Positions 57,578 through 60,500 of a stretch of DNA of 64,000 nt are shown here, piece by piece. The notes beneath the pieces are model-generated. The model worked only from the letters and a program-made list of their open reading frames with translations. It made no database searches and was not told the origin of the DNA. Each line of letters opens with the position of its first letter. The first letter of the stretch is position 1. The position numbers and the translations under genes were made by a program. Source of the DNA: Catajapyx aquilonaris (lineage: Eukaryota); contig KZ538519.1 in the NCBI GenBank assembly GCA_000934665.2, positions 1 through 64,000 on the forward strand, given 5' to 3'.

Positions 57578-60500
57578 CTGGAAAGAAAGAGTTCAACATT
57601 ATTCAAGTCCAATTAGTCAACTAGGAATGCAGTGTGCGACATTTCAAGCAACTTTGGAGCACTGATTCCACTTTTTTTGCTCTATATGTTAGGAAGAATT
57701 CCCAACATGACTTGACTGTCTTTGCTTCTGACAGAATATGACGACAGAATGCAAGGTCAAAGTGGCTATAACTCCACGTGAACATAAATGTCACATACTT
57801 CCTATTGACATATGACAACGTAACACATGGCTCCAGCCACTCCAGTGTTTAAGACACAAAGGAACACACGTAATGATATCAGAAATACGCAGTCATAAGT
57901 AGCAACGTGTTTTTGACTGTGCTTTAAACTTCTATCATGTCTGGAGCCTCACACAAATGAACACTGGTGCTGTATTAGTGACTACCCACTCTGGCTTAGA
58001 TCTCACACTTAAAAGGCACCCCATGCGAGACGAATATTTATCTCGCTGTTTACCTGACCCCGCCTCAACCCAAAGTAGCGACAGACTGGATCACCTTGCT
58101 GAATTCGGGGCAACTGGTGCTCTTTCAGACGGCTATGCGAGTCAAGGATATTGAGAGTAGCCGTAATAAGGGTTCATTTGATGGGTCTCACCTGTCCTCT
58201 TTTGAGCCCAAAGTATCGTGCTACAGGGTCTCCAGCTTGAATTCTCATTAGTTGGTTTTCCTTCAGTTTGCTACACAGGATGGTTAAGGATTAGTTGGGT
58301 AATGTTATTTAATTCACTGGATTATCCAGCAAAAGGATACTATCTGGCCAGGAGTTCCTGCTTTTCTTCCGGGGTCATGACAACATGCTCTGGAACCAGC
58401 TCGTGCTCAGTGATGTTAATTAGCAGCTCAGATTCCAGAAATTGTTCCAGGATGTATTTGGGAGCCATGTCAGTCAATGCCTAAAAAGACAAATTAATTC
58501 ATTTAATTCAATCACAGAAGCACTCAAGTTTCCATATGCTGAAATGTGTCTTTCATGTAATTAGCATTTCGACAATTAAATAAGTATTTTCCTATGTGAT
58601 CTAAAAAATCACATCGTTTGGAATAATGGTTGTGCCATTCTCCACATGAGCAGCTGCAAGGTCAGAGGCATAATATAATGCACAGGTGGGGTGGATGCAT
58701 GGGAAAAACTAGAACTTCCTTATTATGCTCAAATGAAATATTACCTTCTAACAGGCATGCTCACTAATAATGTGGGAACATAATGAGCAACAAAAAGCTG
58801 CTTACCTAAATGTGCAAAGATGCAAAAAATAACTTTTTATACATCTACTGTATATTTGAATGCAAGAAGCATGATGATCCACCCATTTCTTCCGCCAAGG
58901 CCCAAATGCATTTTCCTACTCAGCATGAAGTGCAATTAGGAGACTGCTGCAGTAATTATTTCGCGCACAAACATATATCGAATGTGTTTTCCAATGTGGT
59001 TCGGGGGTCATCCATAACATACGTCATGCACTTACAATGCATAATAATCTGACATAATCGGATGCAACTAGCTCGAAGTCTTAAAAACCAATTCACATAC
59101 GAGCAGCTGCAAGGCCAGAAACACAAGTATGGTGGATGCATGGGAAAATGCATCACTTCCTTACGCTCAAATGAAATATTACCTTTCAACAGGCATGCTT
59201 GCTAATCATGGAACATAATGAGTATTAAAAAACTGGTTACATAAATGTCCATAGTTGAAAGGAGAAAAATTATTAAATTGAAATGCATGCAAGCATGACT
59301 TAATATCTATTCTTCTATCAAAGTCATGGATTTTTAATTGTAATCCTCCTTTAAAAGTTCGGTATTCATTAAACCAAGTGGCTGATCTATTTGGTTGACA
59401 CTTCCCTGTGGAGTGGAATGAACATATGATTTTATCCGCAGTTTAATACTCTTTTTTTGCATTCTGAACTTGGGAATTCTTTGCAATAGTGTCATGAAAC
59501 AACAGTCAGATGTTAACACTAGCTGAACTGCGATTTTTTTTTCTCATTTTGGAGGGTCAGTTAAAAAAAAAAAAGACTAAAAACTGCTGACTTCTTATTA
59601 CTGATGTGTAATGGATCCAATTATTCTCAAAGTCTGCTGTTGGGATTAATCTGCATGACTACGGCAGTTTGGATCTCAGAAGAAAGAAAACCCATTAGGT
59701 CGGCATTAAATTGAATACCTCAACCAAAGCTACATTAAAAAGAGAACTTTCAAATTTGTTAAAAATTTCCTTCTTTTCGTTGTGCAACATCTCTCAGAAA
59801 GTAAAGGTGTTCTGTAACCACAAGGATTGGTTAGAATCATTCGTAAATGGAAGGAAGTGTACCCCACCACGACATAATTTTGGCTCGTGCTTGCAGTGTA
59901 AAGCACTCAACACACAAGAAATGCAATTGACACAGTTTCAGTCAGTAGAACATGAAACTGTGTGGAGTGAATAATGCAACTGAAGCCACACATTTTCTCT
60001 CAAAAAAAGTTGTCTTAATATTTCTTTTAGACCTATTGCAACCATTACGTTTCTTTGCGTTCTGCAAACGTTTCCATGCTGACATATTCAATCATCAAAA
60101 GATGGATTGCGGTTTGGTAAGAAAATCGCTTCATCTGATTAACCCCTTGAGCCCCAGCCACCTAGAATCTAGGCTATGAGAACTCGACCGCGCAGTACTA
60201 GATATACCCGCCATAGCCTAGTTTTCCGCTTACGCATGCGCTGAAGATACGAACGAGATATTTTACAAACAATAACAGCTATACTGGAAAACCGTATGAA
60301 TGTGTTGGACACAATTTTACTAGAAGTCCCTAAATTAATTTCCAAAAATACCGCTGTAAAAACTCGAAATTAAAGTACTGCTGGCCAACTATTAGGCTGA
60401 TTTAATTATGAAATACGTTAAAATATATGGAATAACAATTTTGAGAAGGGTGCCAAATTAATTAATCGCCGTACTTTTCGAGAAATAGGTAAATTTGGGA

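Follow-up and report, generated by a model that had tools for sequence, protein, structure and literature searches.

Tandem exons 5a and 5b of arthropod RPB5 are probably mutually exclusive coding exons

Why should the gene for a subunit that is common to all three nuclear RNA polymerases, and that is usually regarded as one invariant protein of these enzymes, carry one of its coding segments twice? The question is raised by an RPB5/POLR2E (RPABC1) gene on the minus strand of the 64-kb window (the whole stretch of Catajapyx aquilonaris DNA analysed here), in which two adjacent exons, 5a and 5b, encode versions of the same 26-residue segment. From sequence comparisons we consider it quite probable that the two arose by tandem duplication and serve arthropod RPB5 as mutually exclusive coding exons.

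The gene begins with exon 1 (61644..61700; all exons and introns named here are on the minus strand), which has its ATG at 61700, encodes 19 amino acids and leads into a GC-AG intron (CAG/GCAAGT) of 88 nt. Exon 2 (61405..61555) ends in phase 1 and is separated by the constitutive intron 2 of 61 nt from exon 3 (61204..61343), which ends the Rpb5 N-terminal domain and passes the Pfam profile PF03871 (RNA_pol_Rpb5_N; 31.2 bits, cut-off 27). All three exons are supported by tblastn (88-96% identity to insect RPB5), by their junctions and by a check of the full ORF. Intron 3 is 2723 nt long; exon 4 (58341..58480; tblastn, junctions, Pfam PF01191) starts the C-terminal domain and ends with ...AGA TA/gt, leaving a split Tyr codon. 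It is followed by an intron of 70 nt (58271..58340), exon 5a (58192..58270), an intron of 59 nt (58133..58191, gtgaga...ccttgactcgcatag), exon 5b (58054..58132), an intron of 476 nt (57578..58053) and the last coding exon, exon 6 (57512..57577), with 21 amino acids and the stop codon TAA. Exons 5a and 5b are identified by tblastn and Pfam, exon 6 by tblastn, ORF and Pfam; the introns of 70 and 476 nt are defined by their junctions and the 59-nt intron was read from the sequence. Rfam has zero matches in the window.

The two exons are both 79 nt long, 5a being Met-type (LMRIQ) and 5b Pro-type (LPRIQ), and lie exactly at the coordinates given in the original prediction. Each consists of one base that closes the split Tyr codon (TA/C) from exon 4, plus 26 codons; both have AG before and GT after them and both have the same codon phase. 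Their nucleotide identity is 47/79 and their synonymous divergence is saturated (NG86 pS > 0.75). A recount gave the same 20 identical residues of 26, and the same 14 silently different codons among these 20, as had been claimed; all codon examples (AAG/AAA, CTA/TTG, AGA/CGA, GGA/GGT, CTC/TTG) were found, and so were the six replacements (5a/5b: K/R, N/H, M/P, A/Q, A/C, K/R). The 5a peptide is identical to several insect RPB5 proteins. For 5b, a tblastn search of the 64-kb window with an insect RPB5 (P0023) gives a match in the right frame and position at E = 2e-8, and each of the 26-residue peptides alone passes PF01191 (RNA_pol_Rpb5_C; 32.0 and 32.6 bits, cut-off 23.5): the similarity of 5b is thus not due to chance. 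The 5b acceptor has a poor pyrimidine tract in the window and is weaker than the 5a acceptor; a YNYURAY-like ccttgac is present 9 nt upstream of the AG in the 5a-5b intron.

On the PF01191 profile (73 positions), exon 4 covers positions 1-26, 5a or 5b positions 28-53 and exon 6 positions 54-73, all above the cut-off, and the C-terminal RpoH-like globe is complete and collinear over exon 4, 5a/5b and exon 6. These positions, together with Zaros et al. (PMC1802627), place the segment, as predicted, in the C-terminal RpoH-like domain, the part of RPB5 docking on the largest subunit. The same paper names H147, P151, D182, R200 and R212 as critical residues of yeast Rpb5. Their equivalents are all present (H and P in exon 4, D at position 14 in 5a as well as in 5b, both R in exon 6; the yeast numbering is offset by +5, as verified on the yeast chain) and are invariant in our RPB5 alignment A1. 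The predicted fold of a 5b-type protein, P0017, has a mean pLDDT of 89 and aligns with the Drosophila, human and yeast Rpb5 chains at TM scores of 0.83-0.90.

Since 79 nt do not make a whole number of codons, a full 210-aa subunit needs exactly one of the two exons. In silico, inclusion of either 5a or 5b alone results in a protein of 210 aa; inclusion of both causes a stop 13 codons into 5b and a 202-aa product without the last strands and without the essential Arg residues, and when neither is included the exon 4/6 junction forms a TAG, leaving 162 aa. The two exons are homologous, adjacent with no constitutive exon between them, non-productive when jointly included or skipped and, in the window as well as in all 11 metagenome loci described below, equal in length, splice-site type and reading frame. 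In these respects, and in that they encode one structural element, they resemble the mutually exclusive clusters defined by Pillmann et al. 2011 (PMC3228551) as adjacent homologous exons with equal length, splice-site type and reading frame. Frame alone can explain the exclusivity, which would then be set by truncation or mRNA decay, with intron size not responsible. Steric hindrance by an intron below the minimal size was considered and rejected: the 59-nt spacer compares with the 61-nt constitutive intron 2, and elsewhere the spacer is 2.5-2.65 kb. Folding and inverted repeats in the window sequence, taken by itself, gave no sign of docking/selector RNA pairing around 5a/5b: positions 58030-58345 have no excess folding energy (z = -0.09 versus shuffles), and the inverted repeats are short and at chance level. 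Two of them, between the 5b donor and exon 4 (16 nt, 81%) and flanking 5b (12 nt, 92%), are at most tentative candidates.

Exons of the 5b type are also present in other arthropods and in metagenomes. In Lycorma delicatula (P0017) and Anabrus simplex (P0018), proteins entered in the database as 'isoform X2' have a 5b-type exon (LPRIQT[GS]...) replacing 5a. A search with a degenerate pattern (DP[VI]...) identified 11 metagenome loci with 5b, an exon of the form AG/79 nt/GT in 11/11; in 5/11 the fetched stretch also contains 5a, 2527-2650 nt upstream of 5b. The order of the pair is the same as in the window, with the Met-type exon upstream and the Pro/Cys/Arg-type exon downstream. Cys17 and Arg23 of the window 5b are common to the insect 5b exons and are kept in all 11 metagenome loci. 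Among the 200 RPB5 database proteins compared, which were clustered at 90% identity so that isoforms could be hidden, two have the Cys-type exon. From the conservation, and from the isoform names of the two insects, we infer that 5b is used in this species.

Both exons had been predicted to be constrained copies of an old duplication, and the substitution patterns agree with this. Exon 5a is under extreme constraint, with a pN/pS of 0.02 (0.017/0.79; NG86, window versus lineage L001). For 5b, pN/pS ranges from 0.16 to 0.31 (0.184/0.60 for window versus L001, 0.169/0.94 for window versus L011 and 0.10/0.62 for L001 versus L011): this is looser than 5a, with amino acids changing at about 10 times the rate, and is not near 1, the value named beforehand as speaking against constraint on 5b. 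Four Fisher tests of synonymous versus non-synonymous change gave p = 4e-11, 9e-4, 2e-9 and 3e-5, all ≤ 9e-4. Across five aligned loci, which represent three distinct haplotypes, 1/79 columns is variable in 5a, 2/79 in 5b and 308/3156 (9.8%) in the flanking non-coding sequence, and the changes within the exons are all synonymous (p = 0.003, 0.015). Judged by these substitution patterns, the comparisons show that purifying selection acts on both 5a and 5b.

In poison exons it is typically the nucleotide sequence that is conserved, whatever the frame. If 5b were such a regulatory exon, its inclusion together with 5a would introduce a premature stop and reduce RPB5, and it would not be translated as an alternative to 5a. 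The stop inside 5b on double inclusion is indeed also found in L001 and L011, and thus in 3/3 lineages with the window included, and the 59-nt intron is probably splicable: given the constitutive intron 2 of 61 nt in the same gene, a 5a-to-5b splice is physically possible. However, 5b is conserved as a coding exon in the frame of exon 4, with few replacements and with 12/22, 15/27 and 11/17 of the differences at codon position 3; its peptide lacks none of the residues that are invariant in this part of RPB5 and passes Pfam without help from neighbouring exons, and in the database proteins of two insects it stands in the place of 5a. We therefore think a poison exon improbable. A pseudoexon, unused and with its decay still to come, is very improbable: the weaker acceptor of 5b and its faster protein-level rate would fit a relic, but silent sites are near or at saturation, whether 5a is compared with 5b or 5b with its orthologues, while the reading frame has stayed open, the splice sites intact and pN/pS low, and among close relatives 5b varies far less than the introns at its flanks.

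A pair of translated alternatives remains the preferred reading, and its age can be approached through position 8 of the exon-5 segment, which is occupied by P in 105 and by M in 95 of 200 segments from 200 proteins. M is found in the named insects, crustaceans, chelicerates and myriapods, and P in tardigrades, molluscs, annelids, deuterostomes, a cnidarian, a sponge, nematodes and fungi. QLPRIQ, the 5b form, is present in mammalian Pol II chains and in the Rpb5 of S. cerevisiae, and LMRIQ, the 5a form, in Drosophila Rpb5 (9mu7/9mu9 chain E), both in agreement with the original prediction. On this distribution, 5b resembles human and yeast RPB5 through a retained ancestral Pro, which extends from archaea-like RpoH relatives to humans, and Met is the novel state, common to arthropods as a whole. 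For the further idea that lineages kept different copies the data are suggestive only: the listed barnacle proteins have a Pro/Arg exon and the other named arthropods the Met exon.

A Pro-to-Met change characterises RPB5 in all four arthropod subphyla; the duplication would have preceded or accompanied it and would therefore date to the arthropod stem, an age derived from parsimony and weak residue signatures. Exon 5a would then have become the main form, and 5b would survive as an alternative that retains the universal Pro. The Rpb5 of Drosophila melanogaster in native Pol II (9mu7/9mu8/9mu9 chain E) is Met-type and 25/26 identical to the window 5a; the solved Drosophila chain has the Met form only. 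In an RPB5 tree of 35 rows, built with the exon-5 segment removed, 18/32 inner branches are open and the window sequence is unplaced; its signatures (C-terminal LVV, ERKPAR) are closer to scorpion and spider than to insects (LVC, EKRPAR), which is weak evidence. Separate duplications of one exon in the window lineage and in insects would be in line with the protein-level distances of the window 5b, which do not clearly favour insect 5b over 5a (Nd 11 versus 12-14), and with position 5, which is His in the window 5b and Asn in both insect 5b and 5a. Yet the order with the Met copy upstream, the length and the phase are all equal, Cys17 and Arg23 are shared derived residues, and any duplication after the change to Met would require the downstream copy to revert from ATG to CCN on two independent occasions; we give independent origins little credence.

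If one old pair is accepted, do the six residues matter? They would surround, within the C-terminal globe, the invariant Asp that is in contact with the alpha46 helix of the largest subunit, and would most likely fine-tune docking or chaperone-assisted assembly with the fold unchanged. It may instead be that both exons are used but encode functionally equivalent proteins, the pair being kept by divided expression between tissues or stages; this is a possibility to be taken seriously, even if we lean against it. Five of the six sites differing between 5a and 5b vary generally among RPB5 proteins, and according to PMC1802627 the yeast mutation R169D (equivalent to exon-5 position 1) has no phenotype and the yeast and human Rpb5 globes are interchangeable. 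Moreover, native Drosophila Pol II functions with the Met form, which is also the sole form in the listed proteins of most named arthropods, and the Pro form serves all other taxa named in the comparison. Against equivalence stand the strict P/M dichotomy at position 8, with no third residue in the 200 segments, and the retention of Cys17 and Arg23 in 5b in the window, the two insects and the metagenome loci, which suggests an isoform-specific constraint. The 5a and 5b isoforms may differ in function, for instance in the polymerases or partners that they prefer, or they may be near-equivalent biochemically. As a tentative suggestion, which we think rather unlikely as it stands, arthropods may have had two splice-encoded versions of RPB5 since their stem, with the Pro-type 5b reserved for a specialised context (a particular polymerase, URI/Bud27-type assembly or the germline), freeing 5a for the Pro-to-Met change. 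If so, the back-up by 5b would explain why the QLPRIQ proline was lost in arthropods alone.

The classic mutually exclusive exons of arthropods are those of Dscam and of the muscle myosin heavy chain. The RPB5 pair is unlike such clusters in that it has two exons only and belongs to a housekeeping transcription subunit rather than to a receptor, channel or motor. The sodium-channel (SCN alpha) exons 5a/5b, as described in the accessible part of PMC12772994, are likewise an old pair that differs at few residues and of which annotation missed copies, but in another gene family and another range of taxa. A precedent for polymerase-specific variants of RPB5 comes from plants, which have paralogues for Pol II/IV (subunit 5A) and for Pol V (subunit 5A), represented by the chains 7eu0_E, 8hyj_E and 8hil_E; these result from whole-gene duplication and are highly diverged, with 27-50% identity to the insect protein, while 5a/5b is a single spliced cassette of 26 residues. 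The RPB5 pair would, if the specialised use holds, be the splicing-based counterpart of these paralogues. A search of the full-text literature, with subscription journals and bioRxiv supplements outside its range, turned up no description of RPB5 exons that are alternative or duplicated. A selected cassette pair in the docking domain would enable many arthropods to assemble each of their nuclear polymerases in two versions, and offers a testable handle on whether shared subunits serve to diversify animal polymerases.

The 5b cassette is probably under-annotated, because automated gene models mishandle the RPB5 locus: the model of the dragonfly Ladona fulva (P0022, 252 aa) fuses both exons, with the 5a peptide followed by the 5b peptide. 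The 16-residue spacer between them was considered as a retained intron of 47 nt, but this was rejected as it starts with Phe, whereas GT would give Val. A horseshoe-crab protein named 'isoform X1' represents a cluster with two members.

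A complete RPB5 (RPABC1/POLR2E) gene lies on the minus strand of the window, where it was identified by tblastn with two insect RPB5 proteins and inspection of the junctions. Its exons lie at 61644-61700 (exon 1), 61405-61555 (exon 2), 61204-61343 (exon 3), 58341-58480 (exon 4), 58192-58270 (exon 5a), 58054-58132 (exon 5b) and 57512-57577 (exon 6, TAA included) and are separated by introns of 88, 61, 2723, 70, 59 and 476 nt, in gene order. Intron 1 is of the GC-AG type: its GC donor (61642-61643, minus strand) stands in the perfect context CAG/GCAAGT, and the exact site is fixed because homology demands a Q/L junction there. 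The 2.7 kb intron 3 contains two copies of a 140-190-nt element (58681-58825 and 59122-59260), 78-88% identical and about 438 nt apart, resembling a short interspersed or tandem repeat.

Judged from sequence, it is quite likely that 5a, the upstream Met-type copy (LMRIQ), and 5b, the downstream Pro-type copy (LPRIQ), belong together as mutually exclusive coding exons, a conserved pair yielding two predicted RPB5 isoforms. Exon 4 ends in ...AGA TA/gt. In both copies an initial C completes the Tyr codon TAC, 26 codons follow and the end is CAG/gt. The original description of the pair proved correct in every element: 20 of the 26 residues are identical, 14 of these 20 have silent codon differences (with all codon examples quoted) and the six replacements (5a/5b) are K/R, N/H, M/P, A/Q, A/C and K/R, at positions 1, 5, 8, 12, 17 and 23 of the exon-5 peptide. 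At the nucleotide level 47/79 positions agree, and divergence at synonymous sites has reached saturation (NG86 pS above 0.75). Exon 5b was found by tblastn with insect RPB5 at E = 2e-8, and the 26-residue peptides of 5a and 5b alone score 32.0 and 32.6 bits for Pfam RNA_pol_Rpb5_C (gathering score 23.5), at the same profile positions; the match is thus far beyond chance.

When the exons are joined in silico by their coordinates, exons 4, 5a and 6 as well as exons 4, 5b and 6 encode an open 210-aa protein. With both copies included, translation would end after 202 aa, 13 codons into 5b; with both skipped, exons 4 and 6 meet in a TAG, which leaves 162 aa: a productive RPB5 mRNA arises only with single inclusion of 5a or 5b. 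The sequence criteria of Pillmann et al. (PMC3228551) for predicting mutually exclusive exons are homology and agreement in length, in splice-site type and in frame, and the 5a/5b pair shows all of these. The reading frame is the only mechanism of exclusivity demonstrable here. The 59-nt spacer between 5a and 5b is unconvincing as a steric block, with constitutive intron 2 measuring 61 nt and the spacer 2.5-2.65 kb in other species. The 5a/5b region has no excess RNA folding stability (z = -0.09), and the only inverted repeats nearby are short and at the level expected by chance. One of them (58047-58062 with 58370-58385) would base-pair exon 4 with the 5b donor and another (57954-57965 with 58169-58180) would loop out 5b; neither exceeds what chance gives in 1 kb of sequence, and both offer speculative ideas for splice choice.

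The pair also occurs in other genomes. From 22 candidates, a protein search with the 5b frame yielded 19 proteins. In the insect entries P0017 (Lycorma delicatula) and P0018 (Anabrus simplex), both named 'isoform X2', the sequence NL[KR]EN.LPRIQT[GS] and the 13 residues following it replace the usual insect peptide. In the 252-aa gene model P0022 of the dragonfly Ladona fulva, one 26-residue cassette is followed by 16 extra residues and a second 26-residue cassette; a gene predictor has fused the Met-type and the Pro-type cassette, an artefact that the exon duplication has produced in the annotation. A search with the last 55 residues of P0017, in which 90%-identity clustering can hide isoforms, gave no more Cys-type proteins among the best 120 of 381 matches. 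A metagenome search with a degenerate DNA pattern for DP[VI] and ten further residues matched 11 loci, and in 11/11 exon 5b consists of 79 nt between AG and GT in the same phase. Met-type 5a lies 2527-2650 nt upstream of 5b in the fetched stretch of five loci; in the remaining six the upstream stretch falls short of that distance or is without 5a. In one locus (L011) the last exon is present too, some 580 nt downstream. Ten predicted proteins (P0136, P0138-P0140, P0145, P0146, P0148, P0149, P0151, P0161) run on past ...YRLVC with a W; these are not real extensions, and it looks as if the gene caller took the TGA stop for Trp.

Purifying selection on both exons, as originally proposed, is borne out by comparisons of orthologous exons (Fisher tests of synonymous versus non-synonymous change) and by the low variation among close relatives. 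Between the window and metagenome locus L001, pN and pS are 0.017 and 0.79 for 5a (p = 4e-11) and 0.184 and 0.60 for 5b (p = 9e-4); for 5b, they are 0.169 and 0.94 between the window and L011 (p = 2e-9) and 0.10 and 0.62 between L001 and L011 (p = 3e-5). Third codon positions hold most differences in each of the four comparisons, and a dN/dS near 1, which would have spoken against constraint on 5b, was not found in its orthologous exons. Five aligned metagenome loci, which amount to three distinct haplotypes whose introns diverge by 6-7%, vary in 1/79 columns of 5a, 2/79 of 5b and 308/3156 of the non-coding flanks, and all exon changes are synonymous (p = 0.003 and 0.015). Exon 5b has accepted about ten times more replacements than 5a.

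The two copies differ in their likely history. Among 200 exon-5 segments from 200 proteins, picked by similarity to an insect RPB5 and not a random sample (P0057 has no segment, P0022 has two), position 8 is Pro in 105 and Met in 95, and never another residue. Met is found in named insects, in branchiopod, decapod and amphipod crustaceans, in scorpion, horseshoe crab, spiders, mites and tick, and in sea spider, centipede and millipede. Pro is found in tardigrades, barnacles, molluscs, annelids, brachiopod, bryozoans, echinoderms, hemichordates, amphioxus, mammals, a cnidarian, a sponge, nematodes and fungi, and in the solved yeast and human structures. This distribution indicates that Pro is ancestral and that Met is a novelty of the arthropods. 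At 24/26 residues the window's 5b agrees with the hemichordate peptide; the only two differences, Cys17 and Arg23, are both shared with insect 5b. As the downstream copy still has Pro, the data are most simply explained by a duplication before, or along with, the change of the upstream copy from Pro to Met, and we infer that it dates to the arthropod crown or earlier. In the RPB5 tree the window's branch had no resolved placement; its C-terminal motifs LVV and ERKPAR are like those of scorpion and spider and unlike those of insects. Should this likeness reflect its true affinity, the 5a/5b pair would reach outside the hexapods.

Among the fetched proteins, the only named arthropod ones with a Pro-type single listed exon are P0030, P0034 and P0066, which come from barnacles apart from one unnamed protein that matches. 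Each of the two barnacles has one listed protein, whose exon carries Pro and Arg23 together with Ala17. This would fit the survival of only a 5b-like copy; the Met copy may be lost or missed by annotation.

In the proposed scheme, 5a would be the main arthropod form of RPB5 and 5b an alternative exon that has kept the ancestral proline; native Drosophila Pol II contains the 5a-type form. A specialised role of the isoforms, for example in polymerase preference or assembly, is rather unlikely; the Pol V-specific RPB5 paralogues of plants show that this subunit can have polymerase-specific variants. That the two proteins are near-equivalent, with expression divided between them, is likewise less likely than not. 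With a yeast numbering offset of +5, verified on the yeast chain, positions 1, 8 and 14 correspond to R169, P176 and D182. Zaros et al. (PMC1802627) describe yeast D182N as lethal and name H147, P151, D182, R200 and R212 as touching the alpha45/46 helices of the largest subunit; all five residues are present in both isoforms. Five of the six differing sites (1, 5, 12, 17 and 23) vary across RPB5 generally, position 8 being the exception. In the AlphaFold model of a 5b-type insect protein (mean pLDDT 89, cassette 86-92), position 8 lies just before a two-residue strand and position 17 in a short helix starting directly after the critical Asp-Pro. Because this model aligns with the Rpb5 chains of Drosophila, mammals and yeast at TM 0.83-0.90, the RPB5 fold is predicted to accommodate the 5b cassette fully.

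Alternative or duplicated exons of RPB5 did not turn up in a full-text literature search; X1/X2 RPB5 isoforms are already in public annotation for some species. The pair would be a previously undescribed case of the well-known tandem-duplicated mutually exclusive exons, notable for its host gene and apparent age.

The window contains 29 Ns and has no Rfam match on either strand. A 186-aa open frame on the minus strand (53723-54283), which includes a 38-residue stretch and may resemble the N-terminal part of ZSWIM-type proteins, has no Pfam match and is probably an exon of a neighbouring gene. A long trinucleotide microsatellite at about 56122-56208 would read as poly-Tyr, poly-Ile, poly-Asn or poly-Leu, depending on the frame.
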